A stretch of DNA of 54,445 bases from a virus (Duplodnaviria; Caudoviricetes), in the IMG/VR virus record IMGVR_UViG_3300030333_003568, positions 1-54,445 of that record; one strand, written 5' to 3'. Of the stretch, positions 23,316 through 53,888 are shown piece after piece. Position 1 is the stretch's first letter. Every line of letters begins with the position of its first letter. Position numbers and translations under genes: made by a program. A model generated the notes under the pieces. That model made no database searches. It saw only the letters and a list, made by a program, of their open reading frames with translations, and was not told the DNA's origin.

Positions 23316-24911
23316 TTAAGCAACTATCCAAGCCTTTGCTTTTCTCTTTGGTTTGATCCATTTTCTTTCTTTTCCTTGATTTGATTGTTTTAAATTTGGG
23401 GGGAAAGCGTGCAAAAGCGCATAGAAAAGTGTTTCAATAGTATCATCATGTGCCATTTTTGACCCAAAAGTAACGATTTCGTGTTTTAAATCAAACATAT
23501 TATCCCTTAAATATACTGTTCCCGTACTAAACCTACCAGATAAACCAGAATATATCTTATTTCTTTTTTCTCTTCCACCTGGTTTTTCAGGGATTACCGC
23601 TATTTCAAACTTATTTTCTATTCTTCTTCTTTCATTTAAAGCTTGAAATACCGATCTATTCATAGCGACATCTTCAACTGTACTAGATGTACAATGGTAT
23701 TTTTGATGCATTTCCATTATGTAATCAACTACACCTTTTTTTCCTGTAAGAGTTCCATCAACTCCTCTTGCTCCGACAGTTGGTATTGAGCGATGTCTTT
23801 CGTATTCAAGAACATAAGCATTATTATTGGGGTCAATTGCCACAGCCATAATAACAGAAAAGTCTGAATTTCTTGTATCTATATCTGTGGCTGGGTCGCA
23901 TCCAATAAATGTATTACATGGTATTTGTTCACCATCTATTATTAAATAATTTATATCATCTTCATTTTTATAATAGCCTTCCCAATATTTTACATAATTA
24001 TTTCCCCAAAGAGCATCTTCTTCATTTTGAACTTCTAGTTCATATTCTTGGTAATAACCTTGTCCTCTTCCAGCTTCTTCATATTCTTTTTTAATTTTTA
24101 AAAGTTTTTCTTTTGGCATATAAGAAGCCCACAATACACCACCTTTCATTTCTGGTTGAGTTGATTTGTATGTAATTACATCCCATGTATATTTAGATTT
24201 ATTATCTGCTTTTTCATATCCATCTAATATATTTTGACACAAGCTATCATAATGAACTGGTGTTCCTGCAAATATTAATCTACCGCTATTAACATCTAAA
24301 GCAGGTCTAACTCCATTATATACAATATTCTTTATCTTTTCTCTAGCATCTTGAGTTACTGTATTTGTTTCACTTTCAGTATCATCAAGGGCAACAATAT
24401 CATATCTTTTTCCTAAATAGTTTTCACCACGAACACTTGAAAGATTTGAACGACTTATTAATTTAGCTTTTGTATTTGTTACAATATCAGTTTCAGTCCA
24501 CTTTTCTCCAACAATATCTCCAAAATAATATTTAATCATATCATTTGTTTGGAAATGTTGTTTAATGTATTGAAGATTTAAAATTGATTTTCTATGATTA
24601 TCAGAAACCCAACCCATAAATAAAAACTCATCTTGAGGTTTAAATAATATTTTATGCATTAAAAATGTTTTAAATAACTGAGTTTTAGCACTTCCTCTAG
24701 GAAGTATTAATGCAAGTGATCTTGTAGTCTTTTCAAGTAGAGCATCTGCTATTTCATAATGGAACTGGGGAGATTCGGACTTTCCAAAATCCCCTGGCAA
24801 GAATAATTTACCAAAAGCAATCAAATCATGCCGCGCTATGTCAAGAACTTCATTTGCTCTTGAAACATTATTATTATTAATATTTACTTTTTGTACTTGC
24901 TTCTTTTCCAT
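23316..24911 (-). CDS. terL: Terminase large subunit
   Basis: PRGSAKT Walker A variant, VALDDTE Walker B, GTP coupling motif, YQEY, nuclease IGCDPA...SDFS...HDD. Confidence 0.9.
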   Translation of the reverse strand: MEKKQVQKVNINNNNVSRANEVLDIARHDLIAFGKLFLPGDFGKSESPQFHYEIADALLEKTTRSLALILPRGSAKTQLFKTFLMHKILFKPQDEFLFMGWVSDNHRKSILNLQYIKQHFQTNDMIKYYFGDIVGEKWTETDIVTNTKAKLISRSNLSSVRGENYLGKRYDIVALDDTESETNTVTQDAREKIKNIVYNGVRPALDVNSGRLIFAGTPVHYDSLCQNILDGYEKADNKSKYTWDVITYKSTQPEMKGGVLWASYMPKEKLLKIKKEYEEAGRGQGYYQEYELEVQNEEDALWGNNYVKYWEGYYKNEDDINYLIIDGEQIPCNTFIGCDPATDIDTRNSDFSVIMAVAIDPNNNAYVLEYERHRSIPTVGARGVDGTLTGKKGVVDYIMEMHQKYHCTSSTVEDVAMNRSVFQALNERRRIENKFEIAVIPEKPGGREKRNKIYSGLSGRFSTGTVYLRDNMFDLKHEIVTFGSKMAHDDTIETLFYALLHAFPPNLKQSNQGKERKWIKPKRKAKAWIVA

Positions 24912-26722: not shown

Positions 26723-26910
26723 AATCTTTCCCTTTCTTTTTTATCATCAAGTGCTTTTGCTAATCCCTTTATGAGTGTATTTACTTCTTTTGGAATTACA
26801 TATATTATATTGTCTATTTCGACTGGAATGTAATCAGAAGCAAGACCAGATAAAATAAATTCTTGCCCTTCTATTGGTAGGTGTTGAATCTCTTTTATTA
26901 GTTTACCCAT
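26695..26910 (-). CDS. Hypothetical protein, first gene of late block
   Basis: 71-aa ORF overlapping the terS start. Confidence 0.55.
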   Translation of the reverse strand: MGKLIKEIQHLPIEGQEFILSGLASDYIPVEIDNIIYVIPKEVNTLIKGLAKALDDKKERERLSSLEKSKG

Positions 26911-27141
26911 GTTATAAGTTAACTACTTCTGTTTTAATGTACTACAGTTAATTAATGTAATTTATATATGTATTATTATTTATCCCCGCCCTCACCTCCT
27001 TGAAATTAGATATATTGTCAAGTTATTTCCTAGAATAATTTTTCCAAAAAAATAGGCTCAAAATGCAGCGGACACTATACTTACACCCCATACCCTTAAA
27101 ATGGAATTAACTATTTTTTGTTTTAAGTTAGGAGTCATTTC
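26911..27141. promoter_or_regulatory. Divergent intergenic control region (possible genome end/packaging region)
   Basis: Strand switch between late and early blocks; AT-rich tract plus C-rich runs. Confidence 0.4.
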
Positions 27142-27354
27142 ATGACACATTTTACTTTACATGGCAAAGTCAATCAGTTGATTACTCTAAAGAGTGGCGA
27201 GCAGAAGACCGTTCAAATGGACGCTGAGTTCATTATTGAGGTCGATCTCAAAACGGGCAAAGCTTGGTACCGCGGAGTTAACAAAACTCCATTCGGTAAA
27301 GAGGGCAAATGTCCACAAGCCATTCTTGAGGTTCTCAAGGCAGAGGAAGCGTAA
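27142..27354 (+). CDS. First early gene, hypothetical
   Basis: AGGAG SD, own terminator, more GC-rich codons than neighbours. Confidence 0.7.
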   Translation: MTHFTLHGKVNQLITLKSGEQKTVQMDAEFIIEVDLKTGKAWYRGVNKTPFGKEGKCPQAILEVLKAEEA

Positions 27355-27366
27355 GCTTCCTTTTTT
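27345..27366 (+). terminator. Intrinsic terminator
   Basis: GGAAGC-GTAA-GCTTCC-TTTTTT. Confidence 0.8.
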
Positions 27367-27393
27367 GAGTTAATCATATAGGCTTTCACATAC

Positions 27394-27424
27394 CCAGGTT
27401 GCTAGACCCTGAGAAAACTAGCAA
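27394..27424 (+). ncRNA. Compact H-type pseudoknot, preQ1-I-like layout
   Basis: CAGG/CCTG crossed with TTGCTAG/CTAGCAA, A-rich linker AGAAAA. Confidence 0.3.
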
Positions 27425-27529
27425 AGATTTTATTATATGAGGGCAAGTGTTTTACCATTTTCACTTAGCCTTCAAAGTATTTATTATACACACTTTTCAA
27501 ATAACATGGGTAATAACTAGGGAGGTTAT

Positions 27530-27652
27530 ATGAGCATTAATTTTGCACCCAAAGAAAAGCTATGGTTTGTACTACTAGATGGTACAAATACTGTATTGTT
27601 TTATTCAATACACAAGGCTCAATGTCTTGCGTATATGGAAAAGCGATTATAG
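27530..27652 (+). CDS. 40-aa early protein
   Basis: GGGAGG SD; MSINFAPKEKLWFVLLDGTNTVLFYSIHKAQCLAYMEKRL. Confidence 0.6.
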   Translation: MSINFAPKEKLWFVLLDGTNTVLFYSIHKAQCLAYMEKRL

Positions 27653-27721
27653 TTTTTCTCGTTGGTTAGAGGCTACCAGAAAACAAAGCCTCAAAGAATT
27701 TATTATATAAAGGAACTAATA

Positions 27722-27886
27722 ATGGAATGTAATTTACATGAAAGAATAGAGGCAGCTATTGATCTTATTGAAGCATGGAGATTAAATGATTGTGATGATG
27801 AGTTTATTAGGTATGCTACAATTAATTGTTGCCCTCATCCTATACAACAAGAAGTTATATTAAACTTGTTGGAGCAGGGGTGGTAG
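27722..27886 (+). CDS. Small early protein (MECNLHERIE...)
   Basis: AAGGA SD before ATG 27722, preferred over TTG 27662. Confidence 0.55.
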   Translation: MECNLHERIEAAIDLIEAWRLNDCDDEFIRYATINCCPHPIQQEVILNLLEQGW

Positions 27887-27905
27887 AAATACTATCCCTG
27901 TTATT
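27874..27905 (+). terminator. GNRA-capped hairpin/terminator
   Basis: GCAGGGGTGGTA-GAAA-TACTATCCCTGT then T-rich. Confidence 0.6.
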
Positions 27906-27914
27906 AATTTATTA

Positions 27915-28046
27915 TATAGGCAAGGTCGCTATCACTAGTCAATCTTGAACTTGAAGCCTTCAAGACCTAATGTATGATATAACTAATCGCGGCTATGAAC
28001 TGAACAGAAATGCCGAATTACTCTGGTTAGGAATGTCTTGCCTATA
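27915..28046 (+). ncRNA. Stem-closed ~130-nt candidate structured RNA
   Basis: Perfect 10-bp closing IR TATAGGCAAG/CTTGCCTATA; internal TCTTGAA/TTCAAGA hairpin. Confidence 0.45.
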
Positions 28047-28077
28047 AACATTTAACAATTAACAATAGGGAGTTAAT

Positions 28078-28281
28078 ATGAGCAATTGTAAAGAACCATT
28101 ACATAATCATCACGATGGATGTCCATCTTGTTTTTATTCTTTAAATGCTGAAAGTATAATTTGGGAAGAATCAGAAAGAAAATACTCAGGTAAACCTGTA
28201 GGCGTATTTAATGCTATAAGAAAATACCAGATGGAATCTCCAATATTCAGACTGTTTGTTAAGCTTGGATTGAGAAAGTAA
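28078..28281 (+). CDS. Small Cys/His-rich early protein
   Basis: GGGAG SD; CKEPLHNHHDGCPSC potential metal site. Confidence 0.6.
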   Translation: MSNCKEPLHNHHDGCPSCFYSLNAESIIWEESERKYSGKPVGVFNAIRKYQMESPIFRLFVKLGLRK

Positions 28282-28284
28282 TAA

Positions 28285-28920
28285 TGGCAGGGCTAGAGGG
28301 AAGCCTTTAATTCCCTCAAAGATTTAAAATGATGTGGCTAATAGTAATATCCGTACAAATATTAATATTGGCTTAAATGCAAATCCTATGAACAACTCAT
28401 TCTACTAGGGCGTGAGCATAGGGCAGTGAATCAGTTCTTTAAGGGCTGAAGTATTCGACCTAAATATTGGCAATACTATCGTAAAGATTGAGCTGTAAGT
28501 ATGAGACTACAACTAAGGAAAGTTCTAGTGTTGTTGTGCAATAGTGAAGGATTGTTAACCTTCTAGTTCTATAAATAGATGAGACTAATAGCGTAAAGAA
28601 TAGGCAACTGTTCAATGTTATAATGTTAATGTGATTAATACTCATGAGACATAAGTCGTAGTATAGTAATATCAGATTCTAGCACAATGTTGCTCGAAAG
28701 AGCAAAACAAAATAACCGAGTATTGTTAGGTAATGGGTTAAAACTCCCTGTCTAAATCTAACTTGCAGCATCATTAATTTTGGGGCTAAATACGCGCCAA
28801 ATGTAAGTGCGGAAACCGATTGTGAGCTTACATAGATTGCAAGGATCGCAACCTGTAATATTAGTTTGATCAACTATATTAGGATGGTGTTATGAGCACC
28901 ATCTGCAATCAAACTTTTAT
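28285..28920 (+). ncRNA. Candidate large structured ncRNA (~640 nt; ROOL/GOLLD size class, family unassigned)
   Basis: No SD-led ORF on the transcribed strand; many hairpins incl. TTGCTC-GAAA-GAGCAA and GAATAG-GCAA-CTGTTC; long-range GCTGTAAGT/ACTTGCAGC. Confidence 0.6.
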
Positions 28921-28941
28921 AAAATAATAAAGGAGTTAATA

Positions 28942-29226
28942 GTGAACGAAGATAAAAAGAAAGCAATAGCTTTAAGAATAGCTGTTCTTATTTCATACGT
29001 TATAAAAATGATAAGTGATAAAAAAGTAACTGGTAAAGACACTTCACAAGATGAAAAGATTGTTCCAGAACTATTAAGTAAATTAGTTGGTGAAGTATTT
29101 AGTTATGATAAAGAAGGATTTATGATGGTTCAAGAAGCTACAGAAAAACTTATAGAAGAAGCTGAAAAAGATATGATTAAGAAAGGAATACCTACAACTG
29201 ATGATAAACAAACTGCTCAAGCATAA
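28942..29226 (+). CDS. Hypothetical early protein
   Basis: GTG start, AAGGAG SD. Confidence 0.6.
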   Translation: MNEDKKKAIALRIAVLISYVIKMISDKKVTGKDTSQDEKIVPELLSKLVGEVFSYDKEGFMMVQEATEKLIEEAEKDMIKKGIPTTDDKQTAQA

Positions 29227-29238
29227 TAGGGAGTAAAT

Positions 29239-29664
29239 ATGTTTACAAGAGTAAAGCTATCAAATGGCTTAACTGTAGCCAATTTTTCATCACCACATTC
29301 ATTTAAATTTACAACAGGTGAAATATTGGAAAAGTGTAGTCCTAATTGGTCAAGGGAAATGTCTCTTGATATAAAAGAATCTGAAAAGCAAATGGTTCTT
29401 AAAGATGGAACTAAAAGTTGGACAGATGTTTTATTAACAATAAGCATACCAAAAAATGTTTTATACAATTTAGCTCCAATAGTAGAGCTTGAATCAATAG
29501 ATATAGTAATTGTTCCACTTATGGTATTAAGAGCAATTCAATCTCTTGATGAGGATACATGGGAGCAAGAGAATTTGAAAAAGATACTGCTTTCAAAATG
29601 CAGAACTGTCAGAATAGCTGATAGGGTTACAAAAGAAATATATCCAGATAAATTCTGTATTTAA
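29239..29664 (+). CDS. Hypothetical early protein
   Basis: GGGAG SD; 141 aa. Confidence 0.65.
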   Translation: MFTRVKLSNGLTVANFSSPHSFKFTTGEILEKCSPNWSREMSLDIKESEKQMVLKDGTKSWTDVLLTISIPKNVLYNLAPIVELESIDIVIVPLMVLRAIQSLDEDTWEQENLKKILLSKCRTVRIADRVTKEIYPDKFCI

Positions 29665-29683
29665 TTCCGTACTCCCTAGTACA

Positions 29684-29736
29684 GGTGGTGATGATTGTTT
29701 ATAGACATGGTTTCATGATTCACCACCATTTTTTTA
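29684..29736 (+). terminator. Hairpin plus T-run
   Basis: GGTGGTGA...TCACCACC-ATTTTTTT, large loop. Confidence 0.5.
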
Positions 29737-29827
29737 TTTAGAGAAGTTTAGCATCCATTAGTACTTGTGGGATTGCACATAAAGGTCAGCCCTTTATCTT
29801 CTCTATAAAATTTAAAGGGGAAATATT

Positions 29828-30016
29828 ATGTTTGAAGGAAATATAACTAAAACAATTTATTATAATGAAGATTTACTTAAAAATTTAAAAAAATTAAAAG
29901 CTTTTCTTAAAAAAGTTAAGCCACAAGATTATTATGTTAGAGGATTTGAAGATTCTAGGATAATAATGATTGAAGTTGTTGAAATAATAATAAAAAAACT
30001 AGAGGAGGAAAAATAA
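29828..30016 (+). CDS. Hypothetical protein
   Basis: AGGGG SD; 62 aa. Confidence 0.55.
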   Translation: MFEGNITKTIYYNEDLLKNLKKLKAFLKKVKPQDYYVRGFEDSRIIMIEVVEIIIKKLEEEK

Positions 30017-30017
30017 T

Positions 30018-30179
30018 ATGCTAAAAGGTATATTAATATTTATTGTTATGTTAATACATATAATGTTTGGATTCTTTTTAATGAAAATATGGGAAGACAG
30101 ACATATTTGGAAAAATGATAAATCTAATGAATTAATGAGCAAAGTAGATGATTATATAAGCTCAGAATCTTGGAAATAA
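30018..30179 (+). CDS. 53-aa single-TM protein
   Basis: GAGGAGG SD; MLKGILIFIVMLIHIMFGFFLMKIWE... Confidence 0.5.
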   Translation: MLKGILIFIVMLIHIMFGFFLMKIWEDRHIWKNDKSNELMSKVDDYISSESWK

Positions 30180-30180
30180 T

Positions 30181-30363
30181 ATGTTAAATAAAGTAACTAA
30201 AAAACAAATTAACGATGCTTTTGAATATTTTATGGACACTGGAAGATTAGAAGAAGTTAATTCAGACGACAGGTATTATATTAAAGTATTATTAAAATCA
30301 ATAGCAAATGAACAAAATGTAAAATTAATATTTGGAGAAGAAGATGAGCAATCTAAATCTTAA
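30181..30363 (+). CDS. Hypothetical protein
   Basis: Tightly packed 60-aa ORF. Confidence 0.55.
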   Translation: MLNKVTKKQINDAFEYFMDTGRLEEVNSDDRYYIKVLLKSIANEQNVKLIFGEEDEQSKS

Positions 30364-30571
30364 AAAGAAAGACGATGTGTTTATTAAATTAACAAAATGT
30401 TTAGATAAATGTAATTCAGTTCGTAATCTTAGCAACTGGGAAGACAAAGCTCTTAATGATGGTTGGATAATGGCATTAAAATGGGTATTAGGGTACGATG
30501 AATTAAATAATTCTGAAGAATTATATCTTGACAACTTAGATGATAATGAAATAGATATGAATAAATTATAA
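30345..30571 (+). CDS. Hypothetical protein (start approximate, MSNLNLKK)
   Basis: GGAG SD; GWIMALKWVL motif common in small phage proteins. Confidence 0.5.
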
Positions 30572-30583
30572 AAAGGAATAAAA

Positions 30584-30760
30584 ATGAAACCAATAAAAGA
30601 AAAAAAAGAAGTATCTAGATATAGATTACAATCTGTTAATATAAAAGAGATTATTAATAAATATCCAGATAAAGTAGTAGATGTTTATAATGAAGGAAAA
30701 CACGCTGTTTTACAATTATCAAACATGAAAATAAAATTCTTAAATAAAAGGAGTAATTAA
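30584..30760 (+). CDS. 58-aa hypothetical protein
   Basis: AAGGA SD; MKPIKEKKEVSRYRLQ... Confidence 0.5.
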   Translation: MKPIKEKKEVSRYRLQSVNIKEIINKYPDKVVDVYNEGKHAVLQLSNMKIKFLNKRSN

Positions 30761-30761
30761 T

Positions 30762-31364
30762 ATGGGATTCGATTTAACTGGTTTAAACCCAAATAATCCA
30801 AATAACGCTGTACAGCCTTCAATAGATTGGAGTTCAAATCCAACACAAGAAGAAACAAATAAATATTTTGAAAAGATGGATAAATATCATACTGAAGTTC
30901 CAGGTAATTACTTTAGAAACAATGTATGGTATTGGAGACCGTTATGGGATTTTGTTTGTTCAACTTGTTATGATATATTAACAGAAAAAGATATGGAAGG
31001 TGGAAGCTTCAATGATGGACATGAAATATCTAAAACAAAAGCAATAAGAATAGCAAACAGATTAAAAAAGATGGATAAATTAGGCACTTTAGACAAATCA
31101 GAAGATACATATAAAAAGCAAAAAATTCATTGTGATAAGCATAATAAAAAAATAGAAAAGAAAATGAATAATCTTAAAAAAGAAGTTGTAGAATTAACAA
31201 AAGATAAAAATATAGCACCAAAGGATTATCCAAGACTTTATAAAAAAGAATGGGATAGATTGTACAATCAAAAAAAATGGACTTCTTCTTATCCATTTGA
31301 TGCTGAAAATGTAAGAGCTTTTATAATTTTCTGTGAAAATAGCGGAGGGTTTGTAATATGCTAG
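30762..31364 (+). CDS. Phage hypothetical protein
   Basis: MGFDL...YFRNNVWYWRPLW...FCENSGGF; AAGGAG SD. Confidence 0.7.
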   Translation: MGFDLTGLNPNNPNNAVQPSIDWSSNPTQEETNKYFEKMDKYHTEVPGNYFRNNVWYWRPLWDFVCSTCYDILTEKDMEGGSFNDGHEISKTKAIRIANRLKKMDKLGTLDKSEDTYKKQKIHCDKHNKKIEKKMNNLKKEVVELTKDKNIAPKDYPRLYKKEWDRLYNQKKWTSSYPFDAENVRAFIIFCENSGGFVIC

Positions 31365-31672
31365 GAAAAAAATTAGAACACAGAGTAAAATCTTTGTTAG
31401 CTGAAGATAAAAAATATCAAAGATCTGATTTGGTTTTAATGTCTAGAATATGGTTTGATGATATAAATAGAATACATTATAATAATATAGACGATGTTTC
31501 AGCTGTTAGATTTCTTATGCTATTAAGAGATGGAGCTTTGACAAAATCAGAATCAGTTACTAGATGCAGAAGAAAACTTCAGCAAAAATATCCTGAATTA
31601 AGAGATGAAAAAGTTTATCAAGGTAGAAAGGATAAAGAAAAAGAAATGAGAGAAAGCTCTCAATATTATTAA
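31358..31672 (+). CDS. Phage hypothetical protein (possible HTH)
   Basis: ESVTRCRRKLQQKYPELR motif. Confidence 0.6.
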   Translation: MLGKKLEHRVKSLLAEDKKYQRSDLVLMSRIWFDDINRIHYNNIDDVSAVRFLMLLRDGALTKSESVTRCRRKLQQKYPELRDEKVYQGRKDKEKEMRESSQYY

Positions 31673-31679
31673 TTATATT

Positions 31680-31717
31680 GCCCCTAAGTTTAGATATTAT
31701 TAAATTTAGGGGCTTTT
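31680..31717 (+). terminator. Intrinsic terminator
   Basis: GCCCCTAAGTTTA...TAAATTTAGGGGC-TTTT. Confidence 0.7.
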
Positions 31718-31732
31718 CCAAAGGGAGATACA

Positions 31733-32473
31733 ATGAATTTAGAATCAATTTACGCTGGTTATTTAAATAAAAAACAAGATTTAAACAGAGAAAAATATAA
31801 AGGTTATGATGGATGGCACTCTGCTTCACAAGCTGGTTCGTGTTTTAAGAAATTAGCATTAAGAAGTGAAGGTGTTCCAGAACCTGCTATGGAAAATAGA
31901 GTTATGAGGCTACTTCGTCTTGGAACTATAGTACATGGTGATATAGAAAAATCAATAAAAGATTATATGGATGATCCAAATTCGGATTACAAAAATTCTA
32001 AATCTGTAATTCATACAGAAAAAAAAGTAGAAATACCAGAATTTAAAGTATTAGGTCATCTTGACATAGCAATACATAATACAGAATATAAGTTTGCCAA
32101 AATAATAGATGTAAAAACTTGTGGCAGCTATCCGTGGAAAATGAAATTTGGTAGAAAGCCAGACCCTAATGCTAATACAAATTATAATTTACAATTATCA
32201 ACATACGCATACGCATTTGCAGAAGAAAATAATATTTACTTAGACGATATTGAAATGTCTTTGTTTTGGTATAATAAAGATACAAGTGCTGTTAAAGAAA
32301 TGATTGTTTCTAATGATTGGATTGAACAAGCATTAGAATATTGGGAAGATTTAAGAGAATATACAGATGGAGTAAAATCAGAAGATTTAAAAGTCGGAAG
32401 TTATGGTGTTCCTATGCAAAATTGGGAATGTAGATATTGCTCTTATAAAGACATACACTGTAAGGGAATTTAA
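31733..32473 (+). CDS. Cas4-like PD-(D/E)xK exonuclease with Fe-S cysteines
   Basis: SASQ..SC, GTIVH, GHLD, IDVKT, QLSTY, CRYC...C. Confidence 0.85.
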   Translation: MNLESIYAGYLNKKQDLNREKYKGYDGWHSASQAGSCFKKLALRSEGVPEPAMENRVMRLLRLGTIVHGDIEKSIKDYMDDPNSDYKNSKSVIHTEKKVEIPEFKVLGHLDIAIHNTEYKFAKIIDVKTCGSYPWKMKFGRKPDPNANTNYNLQLSTYAYAFAEENNIYLDDIEMSLFWYNKDTSAVKEMIVSNDWIEQALEYWEDLREYTDGVKSEDLKVGSYGVPMQNWECRYCSYKDIHCKGI

Positions 32474-32500
32474 AAACTTAATAATAGAAAGGAAGGTTGA

Positions 32501-33115
32501 ATGTCAGAAACAATAATGACTTTAAACAATAATGAGCTTACTTTAGATACAGTTAAAGAAAGTTTAAACCAAATAACTAAACAACATAAAAGAATTAGCA
32601 GAATAAAAACACCAAAAGGTCTAGTAAAGAAAAAACAAGGCTTTGATTATGTTGAGCTTAGTTATATGAAAAAAATTGCAAATGAGCAATTTCCAGGATG
32701 GTCTTGGAAAATTATAAACTCAGAAGCTTTAGGCAGTAATGCATATGTAGTTCACGGCAGATTAAAATGGTTTGATAATGGAGTTTGGAGAGAAGGTGAT
32801 ATGGTAGCTGCCCATAGAATACAAACTAAGAAAAATGTTAATCCACCTGAATTTGTTGATATTGGTAATGATATTAAATCTGCAAATACAGACACTATGA
32901 AAAAAGCATTTAATGTGTATATGGATATAGCATCTGATGTTTATAGAAGTGAAGATCCAACTTTGGATGATAATCAAATAGAGAAGCTAATAGAAGCTTC
33001 TAAAGGTACTTCAGTAGAAGACTCTATATCTGAAAAAATAGAAAATAAAGAGATAAATAATAACAACTATAAAGCGAGTTTAGCAAAACTCAGGAGGTTA
33101 GGAAAAAATGAATAG
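32501..33115 (+). CDS. Rad52/Sak-like single-strand annealing protein
   Basis: GFDYVE...ANEQFPGWSW...KSANTDTMKKA...IASDVY. Confidence 0.75.
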   Translation: MSETIMTLNNNELTLDTVKESLNQITKQHKRISRIKTPKGLVKKKQGFDYVELSYMKKIANEQFPGWSWKIINSEALGSNAYVVHGRLKWFDNGVWREGDMVAAHRIQTKKNVNPPEFVDIGNDIKSANTDTMKKAFNVYMDIASDVYRSEDPTLDDNQIEKLIEASKGTSVEDSISEKIENKEINNNNYKASLAKLRRLGKNE

Positions 33116-33359
33116 ATTTGAATCAAATGAAAAACTACTTGTTGAAGGACTTGAATATTCAGTAGGAACAAGTGATGGAAAGGTTTTTAATAGAATAATA
33201 TATAAAGGAACTAAAAACTTTGGCGGAAAGAATATGATGTGTTTTGAAACTGAAAATAAAAATCAAGTAACTATAAATCCAAGTTATAATTCATTTACAA
33301 TAGAAGAAAACGGGCAATTTCCTATGCCCGAAGACCTTAAAATAAAGGAGGGGAAATAA
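33108..33359 (+). CDS. Hypothetical protein
   Basis: GGAGG SD; in recombination operon. Confidence 0.6.
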   Translation: MNRFESNEKLLVEGLEYSVGTSDGKVFNRIIYKGTKNFGGKNMMCFETENKNQVTINPSYNSFTIEENGQFPMPEDLKIKEGK

Positions 33360-33361
33360 TA

Positions 33362-33634
33362 ATGGGAAAACTAACAGTAGCTGAAACTGAAGCACTACAA
33401 AAAGCAGGTGTACTAACAAAAAAAGCAGTAACTGAAATGCAAGAAAAAGGACTTGTCTCTACAAGACGCAAGAATAATAGAAGGTATATCAAAACTGCAA
33501 ATGGAAATCTTGTTTCACCACAATTGTATTTTCAAGGAATTGGAAAAGACAAATATAGTAATGAAATGAGTGAGCTTAAAGAAAAGTTCAATGCTCTCGT
33601 AGTAAAATACACAACAACTAAAAATAATAAATAG
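33362..33634 (+). CDS. Basic hypothetical protein (possible DNA-binding)
   Basis: GGAGG SD; Lys/Arg-rich. Confidence 0.6.
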   Translation: MGKLTVAETEALQKAGVLTKKAVTEMQEKGLVSTRRKNNRRYIKTANGNLVSPQLYFQGIGKDKYSNEMSELKEKFNALVVKYTTTKNNK

Positions 33635-33649
33635 AAAGGACATTTTAAG

Positions 33650-34240
33650 ATGATCGAATTATCTGATACAACTTACAATGAAGAAAGGGATGGAATTATC
33701 CCTATAGTAGCAGGAACATATCCCGCTCATGTAGCAGGTCTTGAAAGTAAAGACTTAACTACCAAAGCTGGAGAACAGAAAGTTTTTAATATAACTTTCC
33801 TAGTTGCTGAAGAAGCTAGTAAAACAAAAGTTACCAAAATGGTTAAAAATGGCGATGGTCAAATGCATGAAGCAAAAGATGAAAATGGTAATCCAATAAC
33901 AATACAAGCTACCCACATGACTGGAAAAAGATTCAATTCTACTGGTATATGGTTAACACCAAGCCCAGAAGCTGGTCAAGGGTGGAAAAATCGCAAATAC
34001 AAAGAGTTCTTTGAAAATCTAGGAGTTATATTCCCAGAAAATAAAGACGGAGATACTGTGTTAGCTGAGGTTGAAGAAAGTGATGTAATAGGTAATCCAT
34101 GTTTTATTAAATTAGGACAAGAAACTTATACAAAAGATGGCGAAGAAAGAAGCGTTTGGAAAGTATTTGATGCTTTTACTTGGTCTGATGGACAAAAATT
34201 GTCTGAAGATGAAGTAGTAGTAGACGATCTTCCATTTTAA
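33650..34240 (+). CDS. Single-stranded DNA-binding protein (DUF669-like)
   Basis: IVAGTYPAHV N-terminal motif; acidic DDLPF tail; follows annealase. Confidence 0.75.
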   Translation: MIELSDTTYNEERDGIIPIVAGTYPAHVAGLESKDLTTKAGEQKVFNITFLVAEEASKTKVTKMVKNGDGQMHEAKDENGNPITIQATHMTGKRFNSTGIWLTPSPEAGQGWKNRKYKEFFENLGVIFPENKDGDTVLAEVEESDVIGNPCFIKLGQETYTKDGEERSVWKVFDAFTWSDGQKLSEDEVVVDDLPF

Positions 34241-34253
34241 AATACCGCATCCT

Positions 34254-34798
34254 AATAAAAGAGAGAGTTTGTTTGAATTTCATTTTCCTTTTGATTAAAA
34301 AAAATCAATCTTATAGATTGTTCTCTCTCTTTTTATTTAGTGGCATTGGATAATTGTTAACAAAAGTATGAATATTAGGATTATTTTTGTAACAAGTGAA
34401 ATTATATATTCTTTTTTGGTTGGCTCTAAGAAAGACCAGTGCCACCTAAAATTTAAATATAGGGATGGAAGTACCCGTAAGGACTTCATAGGTAAAGACT
34501 GTTTGGTATCCAGCCTCCTACCTAATGTTACATCCCTTATTAATAGGGGGGTTCTCGTTAAGTGGTTTATTCTACTTTCACCACTCTGAATTAACAGGCG
34601 TAAAACCGTGAGCAATCCCCCAATAATTATACAATGTCGGTCAGTTAAGTCTAGACGATTCAACTCCGTAAGCGAGCCGACTGTATGGGGCATAAAAATA
34701 AAAATAATAAGGAAAAAAAGTACTTAGCAAAGTAAATAAAAATGTTAGAATAATTTTTCTGCTTTGCTTTGGCTGTGGCAGTTATGCCTTTGCCCCAT
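34254..34798 (+). ncRNA. Tandem array of six stem-closed candidate small structured RNAs
   Basis: Six abutting, non-homologous units each closed by a 7-11 bp inverted repeat, most with internal hairpins. Confidence 0.55.
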
Positions 34799-34947
34799 TA
34801 AATTTTTCAATTAATCTTGGGAGTAGATATGAAAAAAAGAATTAAAATAGTATACAAAATAACTGTAACACTTTGGATATGGACAACAATAATATGGTTT
34901 TGGATGAATGGGTTTATATTCTTTGTAGCAAAATAAAAGGAGAAGTA

Positions 34948-35154
34948 GTGAATAGAGAAATAATACAATTAATGAAACAAAGATTACAAATAGGTAAAAA
35001 AGAATATGGGCAAGAAGTAGATGTATTTGATGGTAGAAGTTGGGAACAAGAAGCTTTAGAAGAGGCTTTAGACTGTTCTATTTATCTAAGCGCTGCTTTA
35101 TTAAAATTAATAAAATCAAAAAAGAAAGGAATACAAAATGACCCAGAATGTTAA
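34948..35154 (+). CDS. MazG-like/all-alpha NTP-PPase-like small protein
   Basis: GTG at 34948 after AAGGAG; GKKEYG...EALEEALDCSIY acidic pattern. Confidence 0.45.
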   Translation: MNREIIQLMKQRLQIGKKEYGQEVDVFDGRSWEQEALEEALDCSIYLSAALLKLIKSKKKGIQNDPEC

Positions 35155-35299
35155 TAAAAATGGATATAAAAAATATCAAGTTCCAAATGAAGCTATGTTT
35201 GGAAAACACGCTGGTGTAAATTTCTACGCCAAAAATAATGAAGATAAGAATCTTTATTTAATTAAATTATTAGATCAACCAGAGGATAAAAATGCTTAG
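35138..35299 (+). CDS. 53-aa hypothetical protein
   Basis: AAGGA SD; MTQNVNKNGYKKY... Confidence 0.5.
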   Translation: MTQNVNKNGYKKYQVPNEAMFGKHAGVNFYAKNNEDKNLYLIKLLDQPEDKNA

Positions 35300-35471
35300 A
35301 TATTATTGGGAAGCTATCTTTTCTGTTGAATATTTTCCATATTGGGAATTTTCAATATTGGCTGTTGTGTTTTTACATTTAAGGTCTTTAATAAGAATGG
35401 AAAAGCTTCAAAAAAAAGTAGACGAAATACAAGAAATAATGTCTGATTTGCTCAATGAAATTGTCGAATAA
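35292..35471 (+). CDS. 59-aa membrane-associated hypothetical protein
   Basis: GAGGA SD; MLRYYWEAIFSVEYFPYWEFSILAVVFL... Confidence 0.5.
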   Translation: MLRYYWEAIFSVEYFPYWEFSILAVVFLHLRSLIRMEKLQKKVDEIQEIMSDLLNEIVE

Positions 35472-35742
35472 ATTAACACTTAAACCTCACAGAAAAGTCA
35501 AAGCAATAGATAGATTAACCAAAAAAGCATTAAAAGATAAACCAAAATGGAAACCATCTAAAGGATATAAATATTTAAAAGATTTAGAACCTGGTACAAT
35601 ATTTAAAGTCGGAGAAATGAAAGGAATTTTACTAGAATCTAGTGTAAATGCTAAAGTAATAATAATAGAATCAGCGGGTAATGAAAGTTCATCTCTTGGG
35701 AAAAAACTTATATCCGCTCATACAGAAGTAAAGGAGGTATAA
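35455..35742 (+). CDS. Hypothetical protein
   Basis: 95 aa, basic N-terminus; start uncertain. Confidence 0.55.
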   Translation: MKLSNKLTLKPHRKVKAIDRLTKKALKDKPKWKPSKGYKYLKDLEPGTIFKVGEMKGILLESSVNAKVIIIESAGNESSSLGKKLISAHTEVKEV

Positions 35743-35957
35743 TGCCTACACCATTTATGTGTCATGAATGTGATTCACCCACGATGAATAGAAATGGAAT
35801 ATGTAATAATTGCATAGAACCAACAACAGCAGATGAATTTAATAAAGCATTATATAAAAAAAATAAAAATATTTTATTTACATCTTTAAAAAAAATTGAT
35901 AAAAAAGTTCATAATCACAAATTGGGAATAGGATTTTCTCAGAAAGACTATAAATAA
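35742..35957 (+). CDS. Small Zn-finger protein
   Basis: CHEC...CNNC; AGGAGG SD. Confidence 0.6.
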   Translation: MPTPFMCHECDSPTMNRNGICNNCIEPTTADEFNKALYKKNKNILFTSLKKIDKKVHNHKLGIGFSQKDYK

Positions 35958-35958
35958 A

Positions 35959-36162
35959 ATGGAAGAAAACACTAAAGTAACTACAACTCCAGATAAAAGA
36001 CCAGCTATGGCATTTGATAGAAGAAAAGAAATTATGGTTATAATGAATGCTCTTGAAAATTATAGAAATGAATACGCTTTAGAGAGCATTGATTACTCAG
36101 TAGAAATTGAACATCTTAAAAAAGAATTTCAAAAACTTTATAAGATGTTTGATAAAAAATGA
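35959..36162 (+). CDS. Hypothetical protein
   Basis: Packed 67-aa ORF. Confidence 0.55.
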   Translation: MEENTKVTTTPDKRPAMAFDRRKEIMVIMNALENYRNEYALESIDYSVEIEHLKKEFQKLYKMFDKK

Positions 36163-36179
36163 TAATATAAAAGAAGCAG

Positions 36180-36395
36180 TTGCTTCGGAAGGAAATTATG
36201 ATATATCTTGACCCAACGATAATAAGAACAAAAACATCTAAAACTCTTTTAAACTTATTAAGTAAATGTGAAAAATATTTAAAACAACATGATAGCATAG
36301 AATCTATCTCAATACAATCTGACATTAATAGAGCAAAAGAAATTTATAAAGAAGAAATAGGGAGAATTTATTATAAAAAAAGAGGAGAAATATAA
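36180..36395 (+). CDS. Hypothetical protein (start probably ATG 36198)
   Basis: AAGGA SD before MIYLDP. Confidence 0.5.
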   Translation: MLRKEIMIYLDPTIIRTKTSKTLLNLLSKCEKYLKQHDSIESISIQSDINRAKEIYKEEIGRIYYKKRGEI

Positions 36396-36610
36396 TGGGA
36401 AGTATGTCTTATATAAGTTATTTATGCGAACATAAAAAAGAAAAAGAATTAATAGAATTATTAGATAAAGACAGAATAACTAGATTAACTGGAAAATCAG
36501 CAAAAGAACTTGCACATGGATTTATAAAAGCACATAATAGTATAAAAGAAAACAAAGATGATCCAGCTTATAAAAAGCTAAATGAAATACACAAAAATTA
36601 TAATAAATGA
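36395..36610 (+). CDS. Hypothetical protein
   Basis: AGGAG SD, TAATG coupling. Confidence 0.6.
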   Translation: MGSMSYISYLCEHKKEKELIELLDKDRITRLTGKSAKELAHGFIKAHNSIKENKDDPAYKKLNEIHKNYNK

Positions 36611-36987
36611 TCTGTCCTTGTTGTGGCTACACAGATGAGGTAAAATATAATCCTAGTAAAAAAATAAGAGAATTAAGAGGTAAAAGAACACGGCATACTA
36701 AAAAGCTTTTAAGACAAGCGATAAATTTAATACAAACAAATATACCTAGCGAAAATAATATAAACTCAGAATATTATTTATATCAATCAATATCAAAAAT
36801 AAAAGACAAAGTAATAGATTGGTCAGTTTCTCAATTTATAAGCAATAAATACTATCTTAAAGGAAAAGGATTTAAATATCTATCTAGTATAATTGTTAAT
36901 CATAATAAAAATAGAGATACTGTTAGCAAACATGAACTTCTGCAGCATGGCAAACCGCCATCTGTAGTTAAAATAAAGGAGGGTTAA
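36607..36987 (+). CDS. CxxC-containing protein, possibly replication-associated
   Basis: MICPCCG N-terminus; FKYLSSII weakly DnaD-like. Confidence 0.45.
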   Translation: MICPCCGYTDEVKYNPSKKIRELRGKRTRHTKKLLRQAINLIQTNIPSENNINSEYYLYQSISKIKDKVIDWSVSQFISNKYYLKGKGFKYLSSIIVNHNKNRDTVSKHELLQHGKPPSVVKIKEG

Positions 36988-37781
36988 TGTTAGAATCAAC
37001 ATTATTTCCAGTAAAAGAAATGCCTGCTTATTGGGAACAAACTAATAAAAACAAAGGTAATGGAACTAGCGTTAGAGAAATGGCAACTGGATATAAATTC
37101 ATAATAAGAGAAGATACAAATGAAGTACTAAGTTGCATGACAAATGATTATAGAATGGTAACAAATAAAGAAATAATAGATACGGCTGTCCCAATATTAA
37201 AAAAACATAAAGCAGAATTAAAAGAATCAGTAGTCTTAGCTCATGGAAGAAAAACTGTTTACAAATGGATAATACCAGATTATAAAATAAGAATATCTAA
37301 AGATGATGTTTTAAACCCAGAGATTATAATAAATAATAGTTACGATGGAAGTCTTCAAGTTCACATATTAGGAGGAGCATTTAGAATTGTATGTTCTAAT
37401 GGTCTTGTAATAGGTGTAACATTTGGAAAAGGGAATTTTAGACACAATGTAAACAATATAAATCTTGAACATTTAGATGAAAAAATAGAAAAAACAATAG
37501 AAAGAACAAGTAAAATGGCTAATGAGTTTGAATTGTTATCAGATACATCTTTAAACGAAAGACACATTATGAAATTGGTAGAGCTTTTCCCAACTCAAAT
37601 GTCTGAATTTATAGTGCAATATTTAATTGCTAATAAACCTAAGACTTATTGGGATTTGCTAAATTGCGGTACCTACATAGCATCTCATAAGATGAAAAGA
37701 AATTATCAAACAACTCATAAACTTGAGTCTCAACTGTTTGGAAGTGTAAACAAATGGGCTAAAGCAACAGCCAAAGCTTAA
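36987..37781 (+). CDS. DUF932 family protein
   Basis: NSYDGS...FRIVCSNG signature. Confidence 0.8.
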   Translation: MLESTLFPVKEMPAYWEQTNKNKGNGTSVREMATGYKFIIREDTNEVLSCMTNDYRMVTNKEIIDTAVPILKKHKAELKESVVLAHGRKTVYKWIIPDYKIRISKDDVLNPEIIINNSYDGSLQVHILGGAFRIVCSNGLVIGVTFGKGNFRHNVNNINLEHLDEKIEKTIERTSKMANEFELLSDTSLNERHIMKLVELFPTQMSEFIVQYLIANKPKTYWDLLNCGTYIASHKMKRNYQTTHKLESQLFGSVNKWAKATAKA

Positions 37782-37790
37782 TTAAACCAC

Positions 37791-37865
37791 GGGGGCAATT
37801 ATTGTATAGGTGTTAATATGCCTACCTATACACCCATTACTACTGCTAGGTGAATAGTTGCCCCC
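37791..37865 (+). ncRNA. Three-way-junction candidate RNA upstream of methylase
   Basis: 13-bp closing stem GGGGGCAATTATT/AATAGTTGCCCCC; inner GTATAGGT/ACCTATAC. Confidence 0.45.
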
Positions 37866-37883
37866 TAATTTAGGAGATAATAT

Positions 37884-38705
37884 ATGGATATAAATTGTCC
37901 AACAATAATACCTTATATGGGAGGAAAATTTGAACTAAGTAAAATTCTAATTCCCATGATTCCAAAACACACTAGATATATAGAAATGTTTTTTGGAGGA
38001 GGAAGTATGTATTTTAGAAAACCAAAAGCTGAATTTAATGTACTAAATGATAAACACAATGATCTAATAAATCTATATTTAACTGTCATGAAAAATTATA
38101 AAGAATTTCAAGATGAATGTAATTCTTTAATTAAATCTAGATATTTGTATGCAGAGTTCAAGGAAAACTTGAAGTTAGAAATAGAATATAAAGATATGCC
38201 AAATCCTTACAGAGCAAGTAGATACTTCTATGTAATAATGAACGCCTTTAACCACACATTTCACAATCCAATAGCAAAAGAAAAACAAACTTGGTTTCCA
38301 TATAAATGGGAAAATTTTCAAGAAAGCAAAAGAAAACTTGAAGGTTCTATAATAGAAAACTTAGACTTTAGAGAATTATTTGAAAGATACCCAACAAAAG
38401 AAAATGATTTTTGGTACTTTGATCCTCCATATGTCGTAGCTGGAGAAAGGGGAGATTATTATTTTCATGCTTTAAATGAACAAGATCACAGAGATATGGC
38501 ATATATGATAGATGTAATAAATAATGATGGAGGAAAATTTATGGTTAGTTATGATGATCATAAATTAGTACATGAATTATATAAAAACTATTTAATTAAA
38601 AAAATACCTGTTAGATATGCAGGTCAAAATGTAGGCAATGATTATAAAAATGAGTTGGTCATAACAAATTATGAACTAACAAATCAACAATTAACTTTTA
38701 TATAG
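37884..38705 (+). CDS. Dam-like (D12 class) N6-adenine DNA methyltransferase
   Basis: YMGGK, EMFFGGGS, LND, FDPPY, FMVSY. Confidence 0.9.
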   Translation: MDINCPTIIPYMGGKFELSKILIPMIPKHTRYIEMFFGGGSMYFRKPKAEFNVLNDKHNDLINLYLTVMKNYKEFQDECNSLIKSRYLYAEFKENLKLEIEYKDMPNPYRASRYFYVIMNAFNHTFHNPIAKEKQTWFPYKWENFQESKRKLEGSIIENLDFRELFERYPTKENDFWYFDPPYVVAGERGDYYFHALNEQDHRDMAYMIDVINNDGGKFMVSYDDHKLVHELYKNYLIKKIPVRYAGQNVGNDYKNELVITNYELTNQQLTFI

Positions 38706-38713
38706 GAGATAAA

Positions 38714-40105
38714 ATGAGTGATAAAATAATGCCAAGCTCTAGAGAAGCAGAAGAAGCTATATTAGGCTCAATACTAATAGACGGTTCAAAAGCATTTGAA
38801 AAGGCAAACGCATGGATAAGAGATAACAACGCATTTTACTATGACAAAAATAAAGTACTTTACTCTGTTATATCTGATATGCATAGAGATGGCAAGGATA
38901 TTGATATGATAACTGTTTCTGATAAAATAAAAGATTTAAAGAAAGAAAATCCTCAATCTGGATTAGATATGTATTACATAACGGGTTTGCCAGAAAAAAT
39001 ACCTACAACATCAAACATAGAAAGTTATTCAAAAATAGTTTGGGAAAAATTTATAAAAAGAGAAACAATAAAATCAGCTCATGATTTATACAACACAGGT
39101 TTTGATACAAAAAATCAAACAGTAGAAGATTTATTACATAGTCATCAAAAACTATTAACTGAATTACTTGAAATAGCACCTAGTAAAAAGAAAGAAATAA
39201 GTTCTGTTATAAACGAAACTATAGATACATTAAAAACTGGAAAGAATATTATAAAATTTGGATACCCAGCATTAGATAATATAGCAGGTGGTATGACTCG
39301 TAAAGAAATAACAGTAGTAGGTGGAAGACCTGGACATGGTAAGACGACATTAACTATCAATATTATATACAGTTTATTGAAACAAGGCTACAGAGTTATG
39401 ATGTTTAACAGAGAAATGAGCAATATAGAAGTAATTAAGAAATTTATGATAATGGAAAGTAAGGATTTGTTATATGAACATTTAAGAACTGGTAATATTG
39501 AAGAAGGAAGAATACAAGCAATTGAAATGATGGCTGATAGTTTAAAAGAAATGTTAAAGAATTTAATTATGTATGATGATATAAAGAATCTTGGCGATGC
39601 TATGAGAGAAATACAAAGAGAGAAACCAGATATTGTAGTTGATGATTATATCCAATTAATTAAAACAAACAATAGAAACACTAAAGATAGAAGATTTGAA
39701 ATTGAAGATATATTACTTGAATACAAATGGGTTTGTAAGAAAGAAAATTGCTCAGCTATACTTGTTTCTCAATTAAATAGAGAAATAGAAAAAAGAATAG
39801 AGCCTAGACCTAGACTTGCAGACTTTGCAGAAAGTGGTACAATAGAACAAACAGCTGAAACTGCATTACTTGTATTTTATGGGCATAACTTTAACGATGA
39901 AAGATTTGACAAACATGAAATAGAAGTTATATGTGATAAAGCTAGATATGGAAAAGTAGGAACTTATGTAATGGGTTTTAATGGTAACAAATGTAAATTC
40001 TACTCTACCGCTGATGATGCTAGGAATGAAATAATTGATTTCAATAAAAATAAAACAAAGATTGGAAACGAGAGAGCCATGTCAAATGTGCAAACTCAGT
40101 TTTAA
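38714..40105 (+). CDS. dnaB: Replicative DNA helicase
   Basis: EAEEAILGSIL, GRPGHGKT, DDYIQL, SQLNR, ESGTIEQ, KARYG. Confidence 0.92.
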   Translation: MSDKIMPSSREAEEAILGSILIDGSKAFEKANAWIRDNNAFYYDKNKVLYSVISDMHRDGKDIDMITVSDKIKDLKKENPQSGLDMYYITGLPEKIPTTSNIESYSKIVWEKFIKRETIKSAHDLYNTGFDTKNQTVEDLLHSHQKLLTELLEIAPSKKKEISSVINETIDTLKTGKNIIKFGYPALDNIAGGMTRKEITVVGGRPGHGKTTLTINIIYSLLKQGYRVMMFNREMSNIEVIKKFMIMESKDLLYEHLRTGNIEEGRIQAIEMMADSLKEMLKNLIMYDDIKNLGDAMREIQREKPDIVVDDYIQLIKTNNRNTKDRRFEIEDILLEYKWVCKKENCSAILVSQLNREIEKRIEPRPRLADFAESGTIEQTAETALLVFYGHNFNDERFDKHEIEVICDKARYGKVGTYVMGFNGNKCKFYSTADDARNEIIDFNKNKTKIGNERAMSNVQTQF

Positions 40106-40283
40106 TGGATTTGAAAAATATGAATATCATTCATCAATTAGCAATACAACATTGTATGTGTGTAAAAAATGTGCAGTAAGGGAATATTATGGTACAAAAT
40201 CACAAGCAAGTAAAAAATGGAAATCAGATAAAAGCAATAATAAATTATTTGGAGAGCCAATTAATAATAAAAGGATTAGATAA
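40035..40283 (+). CDS. Zn-finger protein
   Basis: CQMC...CKKC; start uncertain. Confidence 0.55.
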   Translation: MISIKIKQRLETREPCQMCKLSFNGFEKYEYHSSISNTTLYVCKKCAVREYYGTKSQASKKWKSDKSNNKLFGEPINNKRIR

Positions 40284-40781
40284 ATGCATAAAACAATAAT
40301 AGGAATAGACCCAGGTGCTAGTGGGGCATTATGCTTTACTAACTCAGAAAAAAAACAAATATATACATATAAATGCCATAAGTTAATAAGCGGTAGAAGA
40401 TTAAGTGTTTCACTCGCTTTAAATGCTTACAAAACTAGAAAAGCAACAGCATATATAGAAAAAGTTCACGCAATGCCTCACGATGGTAGAAGCTCTTTAT
40501 TTAAATTTGGAGTAAACTATGGAGCATGGCTAGGAATACTTAATTCAGTAAAGGGAATAAATAAAATAGTAGAAGTATCGCCACAAAAATGGATGAAGTT
40601 TTGGGAAAATAAAATTGGAGAAAAATTACCTAAAATAAAAAAAGATAGAAAAAACAAGTTAAAAGAAATAGCATCTATTTATACAGATAAACCAGCGACA
40701 CTTTGGAACGCTGATAGTGTTTTAATAACAATGTACGGAATGTACACAGAAGAAGGAGAACTATGGAAATCCCAAAAATAG
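40284..40781 (+). CDS. RuvC-like Holliday junction resolvase
   Basis: IGIDPG, YIEKV, FKFGVNYG, PQKW, ADSVLI. Confidence 0.8.
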   Translation: MHKTIIGIDPGASGALCFTNSEKKQIYTYKCHKLISGRRLSVSLALNAYKTRKATAYIEKVHAMPHDGRSSLFKFGVNYGAWLGILNSVKGINKIVEVSPQKWMKFWENKIGEKLPKIKKDRKNKLKEIASIYTDKPATLWNADSVLITMYGMYTEEGELWKSQK

Positions 40782-40978
40782 ATATTGAATTTTCAAAAGG
40801 AGATGAAACAATAGGAGTAAGTAAATTTAAAATAGAATCAAATGAAATATTACAAAAGGAATATAGAATATATTTATTTCCAATAGAACTTCAACTAACA
40901 ACAACACCTAATATGTTTGCAATAGGAATTAAAATCTTTTCAATAACATTTAGTTTTAAATTGGCACATGAAAGATAA
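40763..40978 (+). CDS. Hypothetical protein
   Basis: AAGGAG SD; 71 aa. Confidence 0.55.
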   Translation: MEIPKIDIEFSKGDETIGVSKFKIESNEILQKEYRIYLFPIELQLTTTPNMFAIGIKIFSITFSFKLAHER

Positions 40979-52926: not shown

Positions 52927-52929
52927 TTT

Positions 52930-53886: not shown

Positions 53887-53888
53887 TT

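Follow-up and report, generated by a model that had tools for sequence, protein, structure and literature searches.

The early region of a Caudoviricetes phage, IMG/VR virus record IMGVR_UViG_3300030333_003568, probably encodes a functional, independently expressed structured non-coding RNA (ncRNA) of about 450 nucleotides (nt) that falls outside the families of Rfam. The whole record was analysed, 54,445 nt with a completeness estimate of 99%, and is called the window below; the RNA lies on its plus strand at about 28327-28781. In closely related phages the same place is taken by GOLLD, a large phage RNA. A first-pass annotation of this DNA, made from the letters alone, had proposed a structured ncRNA of about 640 nt at 28285-28920, within one of the two longest gene-free gaps, and had offered GOLLD and ROOL as possible relatives.

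The gap is confirmed: over 28282-28941 (660 nt) the plus strand, which carries all neighbouring genes, holds no open reading frame (ORF) of 40 amino acids (aa) or more, the longest having 24 aa. It is the longest such gap of the early region, the other lying at 26834-27141. All ten helices listed by the annotation are present in the sequence and used by the minimum-free-energy (MFE) fold. For the long-range pairs, the probabilities are 0.99 for GCTGTAAGT (28492-28500) with ACTTGCAGC (28761-28769), measured at 28492-28769, and 0.91 for TTGTGC (28534-28539) with GCACAA (28682-28687), measured at 28539-28682. Over 28285-28920 the plus strand folds at -170.7 kcal/mol, with z -4.90 and none of 20 shuffles as good, against z -1.29 and 1 shuffle in 20 for the minus strand; a separate set of 60 shuffles gave z -3.99 and -2.34, respectively. 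Within 28327-28781, z is -2.95 on the plus strand (0/100 shuffles as good) and -0.76 on the minus strand (24/100). The predicted preference for the plus strand is thus borne out, and the RNA core has structure beyond chance that is specific to that strand.

The length needs correction. The first 40 nt or so of the proposed element are a copy of a repeated motif, and its last 140 nt or so fold about equally well on either strand (28780-28920, 150 shuffles: z -3.28 plus, -2.34 minus). The body is therefore more likely to measure about 450 nt, from 28327 to ~28781, than 640 nt, a figure that counted in flanking, regulatory-looking hairpins; if the 3' hairpins belong to the RNA, it would reach about 600 nt at most.

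Contigs from RNA libraries cover this same segment. Parts of 28000-29300 occur in 20 runs, four of them recorded as RNA libraries, and every run containing parts of the stretch is a marine or seawater metagenome by its label; the RNA runs X3, X6 and X10, from two samples of one study, and the DNA run X2 were compared over 27000-30500. The flanking genes had no RNA-library contig on them, an absence of cover that is not counted as evidence. Metatranscriptome contigs from three libraries cover 28327-28777: the X3 contig spans 28327-28632 without differences, the X6 contigs span 28522-28668 and 28639-28777, and the X10 contig covers 28330-28739 and, over 411 nt, differs by 19 substitutions and 7 gap letters (~94% identical). 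Two of these RNA contigs have their first letter at 28327 and 28330, immediately behind AAAGATTT, a point that a DNA contig (28271-28700) crosses. These starts give a weak hint of the 5' end of the RNA, weak because the contigs come from two samples of one study. One X6 contig, of 170 nt, consists of 28639-28777, one C and then 28639-28668 again, and is thus cyclic; it could reflect a circular or end-joined fragment of 140 nt, template switching on a folded RNA that ends at 28639 and 28777, or an assembly artefact.

The X10 contig provides a natural variant of the RNA. Among the 17 substitutions listed for it, ten lie where the MFE fold has no pair, two preserve pairing as a wobble (C28539>U with G28682; A28701>G with U28694), and C28605>U turns a GCAA loop into GUAA, still of the GNRA type. 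Eight events cluster on the two sides of the hairpin at 28623-28652, five at 28622-28627 and three at 28650-28652. Here the outer stem (28623-28627/28648-28652) changes from AUGUU/GACAU to CCUC/GAGG at the same place, its U-A, G-C and U.G pairs each becoming C-G. The energy of the hairpin goes from -4.6 kcal/mol in the window to -8.5 in X10, and C28641>G extends the inner stem. Judged from this one sequence, the two-sided rewriting looks like selection on an RNA helix.

A variant of another kind is found in a DNA contig of run X2, where 28930-29228, the place of a 94-aa ORF, is swapped for 154 other letters while 28702-28930 (229 nt) is kept with one difference. Since the next ORF is exchanged and the RNA region retained, the RNA is independent of that ORF; the swap also makes the 94-aa early gene a variable cassette. 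The features of the locus are collected in the table, in which the anatomy of the RNA is a prediction from the MFE fold and pair probabilities.

Table. Features of the RNA locus, with positions in the window except in the last row.
Feature	Position	Strand	Basis or remark
Upstream Cys-rich ORF, 67 aa	28078..28281	+	stop codon just ahead of the element
Hairpin GAGGGAA/TTCCCTC (28296-28317), then AAAGATTT	28296..28325	+	directly ahead of the RNA
RNA body, about 455 nt	28327..28781	+	RNA-library contigs and fold z
Terminal helix joining the ends	28328-28333 / 28770-28775	+	predicted; U-rich tail (UAAUUUU) directly after
Four 5' hairpins	28336-28477	+	predicted
Large domain, shut by long-range helix 28492-28500 / 28761-28769	28492..28769	+	includes the GNRA hairpin block
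GOLLD-subfamily block: hairpin GUAU-GAGA-CUAC (GNRA loop), then AACUAAGGAAAG	28497..28522	+	alignment
Four-hairpin subdomain inside the large domain, shut by 28534-28539 / 28682-28687		+	predicted
Hairpin GAAUAG-GCAA-CUGUUC, GNRA tetraloop	28598..28613	+	sequence, fold
Hairpin with outer stem AUGUU/GACAU	28623..28652	+	stem rewritten on both sides in the natural variant
Hairpin UUGCUC-GAAA-GAGCAA, GNRA tetraloop	28690..28705	+	pair probability 1.0 for 28694-28701
A-rich linker		+	predicted
Local hairpin run, including 28801-28808 / 28826-28833	28782..28882	+	either within the RNA, at its 3' side, or regulatory DNA/RNA
Hairpin GATGGTG/CACCATC (28883-28903), then CAAACTTTTAT (28910-28920)	28883..28920	+	weaker motif copy before the next ORF, by eye
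Downstream ORF, 94 aa	28942..29226	+	missing in one natural DNA variant
GOLLD RNAs of sister phages	L010 5837-6640, L006 5916-6719	-	RF02032

A terminase search of viral contigs yielded 38 loci, and the closest relatives that reach the region are L006 and L010, with a large terminase (TerL) 91% identical. Flanking DNA is 73-80% identical to that of L010 and L006; positions 27647-30580 of the window are not alignable, and the unalignable stretch of both relatives contains a full-length GOLLD, scoring 173.7 bits in L010 and 171.2 bits in L006 (RF02032, model positions 1-416, cut-off 150 bits). L014 has a tRNA at the slot (5818-5885, minus strand; anticodon CAT by eye), and more distant relatives, with TerL ~57% identical, have another structured RNA, for which Rfam gives no match. 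Because relatives carry GOLLD, a tRNA or another structured RNA there, the position behaves as an exchangeable RNA slot in this phage lineage. L014 also has a long non-coding stretch of ~570 nt upstream of its slot tRNA and a second non-coding gap, of 340 nt, two genes further on (4692-5030).

The front element, which is not part of the RNA itself, is common to the window and to its GOLLD-bearing sisters. A hairpin followed by CAAAGAWTT occurs in three copies on the plus strand of the early region (27401-27438, 27669-27708 and 28296-28325, with CAAAGAWTT at 27422, 27692 and 28317) and in a weaker fourth at 28883-28920; behind the first two copies stand TATTATAT and then a gene. The motif may act as a phage promoter or as a site for RNase-type processing, and it can sit within transcripts, since an RNA contig of another organism crosses the copy at 27670-27706. 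The GOLLD gap of L010 and L006 opens as the gap in the window does, with TAATAATGGCA, a hairpin whose stem shows two compensatory changes, and CAAAGATTT. AAGATT stands ahead of the conserved RNA start in most of 10 aligned loci of this GOLLD subfamily, conservation beginning directly after it. Copies of the motif were also seen in L010 at 7517-7566 and 7220-7266 (minus strand).

This marine GOLLD subfamily was observed in the early region of related phages (L006, L010/L085, L088, L079/L089, L091, L080 and L081), with RNAs of 765-801 nt; the L085 copy lies at 6697-7465. In the alignment of its 5' domain, compensatory changes affect 33 of the 96 predicted pairs, and a block of 29 nt is invariant. 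Seven of the 10 loci scanned lie above the Rfam cut-off, the remaining three including two truncated contigs. As positive controls for RF02032, beside L010 and L006, seven metagenome loci score 154.9-181.2 bits. A metagenome scan with one long shared block returned 15 loci, namely 13 GOLLDs (69-100% identical to that of L010) and two unrelated contigs.

The comparison with GOLLD made in the first-pass annotation is apt for the locus, where sister phages carry true GOLLD, and fails for membership: by sequence comparison the window RNA is not a GOLLD and is without GOLLD architecture. A search of the whole 54-kb record with RF02032 at E<=10 gave no match, six candidates being scored. Two covariance models built from the 5' domain of the subfamily score at background on the window, no positive control from beyond the training set having been run. 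R1 (147 positions, filters off) reaches 7.2 bits (E 0.75) at 28440-28546, the expected place, under two unrelated matches of 9.2 and 7.9 bits; the best score of R2 (122 positions), 9.6 bits (E 0.38), falls at 28530-28629, away from the colinear place. Semi-global alignment to GOLLD is at shuffle level, z running from 0.2 to 1.4 against the 5' domain and from -0.2 to 1.9 against the 3' domain. One block is shared: GAGUAGGAAACUACAAUAAGGAAA, invariant in 9/9 aligned subfamily GOLLDs, is matched by 28497-28522 at 23 of 26 positions, one base being inserted, with a local alignment score of 32 against 20.4-21.3 in shuffles (0-1 of 200 as good). A single shared block does not establish membership. 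Some 11 other GOLLD-like viral loci lack the motif ACTACAA/TAAGGAAA in their 5' halves, which makes it subfamily-specific. An nhmmer profile of the subfamily gave only negative-score noise on the window, missing even the 26-nt block, and that run is not relied on. As a candidate for the first hairpin of the GOLLD 3' domain, GUCGUAGUAU (from ~28655) was rejected, its partner strand missing by eye.

Searches for known families, as the annotation had advised, account for the RNA no better. Rfam 15 at gathering thresholds gave no match over the whole window. A scan of 27800-29100 with 4227 families at E<=10 found no GOLLD, ROOL (which we take to be RF03087), intron, RNase P or tmRNA, and only six chance-level rows far under their cut-offs (rli60, snR4, caiA, PK-CuYV_BPYV, ceN82 and BTnc060); ARAGORN found no tRNA or tmRNA gene in the window. 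The suggested membership of GOLLD or ROOL is accordingly not upheld, and as far as these models reach the RNA is a member of no Rfam 15 family. Exact shared words of at least 12 letters across loci L002-L092 were scattered chance words only, and a pattern for the 5' motif matched eight stretches of viral contigs, real only in two known GOLLD contigs. Among the papers listed for GOLLD and ROOL in phages, no title or abstract opening deals with an RNA in the GOLLD slot of marine phages, which is not proof that it is unpublished.

Several observations weigh against a functional, independently expressed RNA. RNA libraries may contain DNA, their contigs carry no strand, ends or level, and the 3' end is not defined by them. 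Relatives are scarce: distant-mode blastn of 28200-29000 against 50,697 phage records gave no match, nor did blastn and nhmmer with the RNA on 42 related loci (L002-L043); the pattern GAGACTAATAGCGTAA (a 16-mer) found four chance matches in viral contigs, and the metagenome scan with the shared block returned no window-type RNA. The sole homologue found is one natural variant at ~94% identity, so that covariation comes from a single sequence and is not a statistic. In that variant four of the seven substitutions at MFE-paired positions break their pair, one partner lying beyond the contig; 21.5% of 200 random mutants attain its fold energy of -96.6, and 25% of 1000 attain the energy of its rewritten hairpin. 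In X10 the GOLLD-like block has lost 2 nt and differs by three substitutions, which argues against strong constraint on that block. The function of the RNA, finally, is wholly inferred.

A decaying GOLLD remnant, with its 3' domain lost and the rest drifting, still transcribed through the surviving front signal and functionless, would be consistent with part of this picture: only the 26-nt block and the flanking signals are common with the sister GOLLD, the natural variant has changes in that very block, the searches gave no wider family, and R1 and R2 are at background. Drift should erase folding, yet the plus strand folds 3-5 standard deviations better than shuffles and the minus strand does not. 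One stem has been re-paired by two-sided changes, two GNRA-loop hairpins are kept, and semi-global alignment at shuffle level (z 0.2-1.4) argues that this is not a lightly damaged copy. We therefore regard a remnant as unlikely; were it true, the locus would merit no more than an annotation note. It is distinctly unlikely that promoters, terminators and processing sites make the region a long leader or regulatory stretch acting in cis on the downstream early genes. Both ends do carry a motif of the hairpin and CAAAGAWTT type, which is also found ahead of two protein genes and can lie inside transcripts (the RNA contig over 27670-27706), and 28780-28920 folds on either strand. Between the motifs, however, lie 450 nt of strand-specific structure, the RNA is retained, at 1 difference over 229 nt, in the DNA variant that has the next ORF replaced, and the slot of sister phages contains GOLLD, a stand-alone RNA.

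The gap region is AT-rich with many inverted repeats, and the minus strand fell to z -2.3 in one whole-gap test, as might be expected of an element acting as DNA (a replication origin, say, or clustered hairpins that bind proteins) or of a spacer that folds by chance. But DNA hairpins are strand-symmetric, and the core is not (z -2.95 versus -0.76, 0/100 versus 24/100 shuffles); helices that depend on G.U pairs and wobble-preserving changes point to RNA, and RNA-library contigs lie on the core, which leaves such an element very improbable. Hidden small protein genes are scarcely credible. Minus-strand ORFs of 61 aa (28460-28645) and 64 aa (28679-28873) do exist opposite the RNA, but both run against the direction of all neighbours, and no GGAG-type ribosome-binding site precedes the 61-aa ORF (by eye). 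Both are frameshifted by the indels of X10 (-2 at 28513, +1 after 28624, +3 after 28625, -1 at 28709), as are two of four small plus-strand ORFs, and the plus-strand micro-ORFs have 24 aa at most.

The reading we prefer is thus a functional ncRNA whose synthesis would begin at its own front signal, or which would be released there by cleavage; it would accumulate as a stable folded molecule and act in trans. It is probably a functional stand-in for GOLLD or an offshoot of it, a shared role being suggested by the use of GOLLD in sister phages in the same slot behind the same signal; its gene may have arisen from, or recombined with, a GOLLD gene. The RNA would then do the job of GOLLD, be it RNA-only self-assembly or the capture of a host translation or defence component. 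A bolder proposal, which we put forward only tentatively and consider doubtful, is that it is the founding member of a new class among the large ornate RNAs of phages, displaced GOLLD from the early slot and performs the same job with a different, smaller architecture, for instance as an RNA-only multimer of nothing but a cap-like domain, the slot being an exchangeable cassette for GOLLD, the window RNA, an RNA of the L029 type described below or a tRNA.

Minus-strand genes occupy 1-26461 and 41087-54443, with the large terminase at 23316-24911 (minus strand), and the early block of small plus-strand genes, transcribed rightward, extends over ~27142-40978. N4-like podoviruses have terminases 23-25% identical to that of the window. 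Two giant minus-strand ORFs, of 2695 aa (44839-52926) and 1252 aa (41087-44845), are nearly devoid of family signal: in Pfam and PHROGs the sole match of the larger is a Rho_N-like stretch at residues 811-843, and neither has a virion RNA polymerase family match. 'N4-like' is hence a loose label for this phage, drawn from TerL by itself at ~24% identity. Between the leftward genes and the early block lies a divergent intergenic region, 26911-27141, with blocks conserved in relatives (CCCCGCCC..CACCTCCTTGAAATTAGAT.., AAAATGCAGCGGA and CACCCCATACCCTTAAAATGG), possibly a control region or genome end. The 67-aa Cys-rich ORF has no Pfam or PHROG family; its residues 2-19 match small ORFs of viral contigs L002-L004, and residues 43-67 match a fourth locus, L005. 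No relatives of the 94-aa downstream ORF were found among viral contigs, and a 200-aa ORF has one there, L052, which is without the window RNA.

One comparison is offered by another RNA family of this phage group, likewise unclassified. This L029-type RNA, the one carried by the more distant relatives, was observed in L029 (5654-6125, minus strand), L030, L031-L035, L043, L016, L018, L019, L039 and L004 (3988-4520, plus strand); eleven loci scanned gave no Rfam family at gathering. In its module A, GGCACUG/CAGUGCC closes a three-way junction whose conserved loops are CACAACUACAAU and CUCCGCAUC, and the stem under the second loop covaries (AAGGA/UCCUU versus UAGAC/GUCUA); module B resembles an H-type pseudoknot (CUCC..AUCCG..GGAG.CGGAU), the second stem being GCCUG/CAGGC in L004. 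Like the window RNA it is a non-coding RNA of the early region, of ~470-530 nt (L029, L004), and in L029 it comes after a small Cys-rich ORF and a CGGCTAT..GGAATGTCTTGC motif. That motif, CGGCTAT..ACAGAAATGCCGA..GGAATGTCTTGC, is at 27982-28046 in the window, ahead of the Cys-rich ORF that precedes the RNA, and at 6436-6490 (minus strand) in L029; it is kept between phages whose terminases are only 57% identical. The two RNAs nevertheless have no alignable similarity, a four-round nhmmer profile of the L029 type did not recruit the window, and the three-way junction and H-type pseudoknot were not seen by eye in the window RNA. A common 7-mer, ACUACAA, was rejected as expected by chance.

ROOL, found in phages and prophages and often near tRNA islands, is described as an octameric cage (bioRxiv 10.1101/2024.12.08.627333). 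Like the window RNA it is ornate, carried by phages and in a similar size class; the difference lies in the Rfam scan of 27800-29100 at E<=10, where no ROOL row appears among the six weak matches. A tRNA neighbourhood is frequent for ROOL and GOLLD; the window is without tRNA or tmRNA, and its relative L014 has a tRNA in the slot.

GOLLD remains the closest comparison. It is an RNA of about 800 nt with a 5' cap domain and a 3' ring domain. The preprint on the ROOL cage presents GOLLD and ROOL as RNA-only homo-oligomeric cages, 14-mer or 8-mer by cryo-electron microscopy, calls the GOLLD 3' region universally conserved and raises a role perhaps involving ribosomes or tRNAs (bioRxiv 10.1101/2024.12.08.627333). 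The window RNA departs from this plan: a conserved 3' domain at 150 bits or more is not found in it, and a gap of 660 nt with an RNA-library span of 451 nt (28327-28777) contrasts with a two-domain RNA of ~800 nt. It agrees with GOLLD in lying in the same slot and strand of closely related phages, in the hairpin and AAAGATTT in front with the RNA starting directly after, and in being a large, multi-helix, GNRA-rich RNA encoded by a phage; with the subfamily it shares the 26-nt block, a GNRA hairpin and ACAA-UAAGGAAA, and a tail of the AUUAAUUUU type. These comparisons locate GOLLD among the early genes of marine phages that look lytic and supply a diverse marine subfamily whose 5' domain has covariation support. 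GOLLD and ROOL are among the largest bacterial and phage RNAs without known function, and near-identical phage backbones in which one position, with a common signal in front, is taken by either canonical GOLLD or another structured RNA of ~450 nt amount to a natural swap experiment. Features common to both slot RNAs, be they partners, assembly or timing, would give a direct handle on the purpose of GOLLD.

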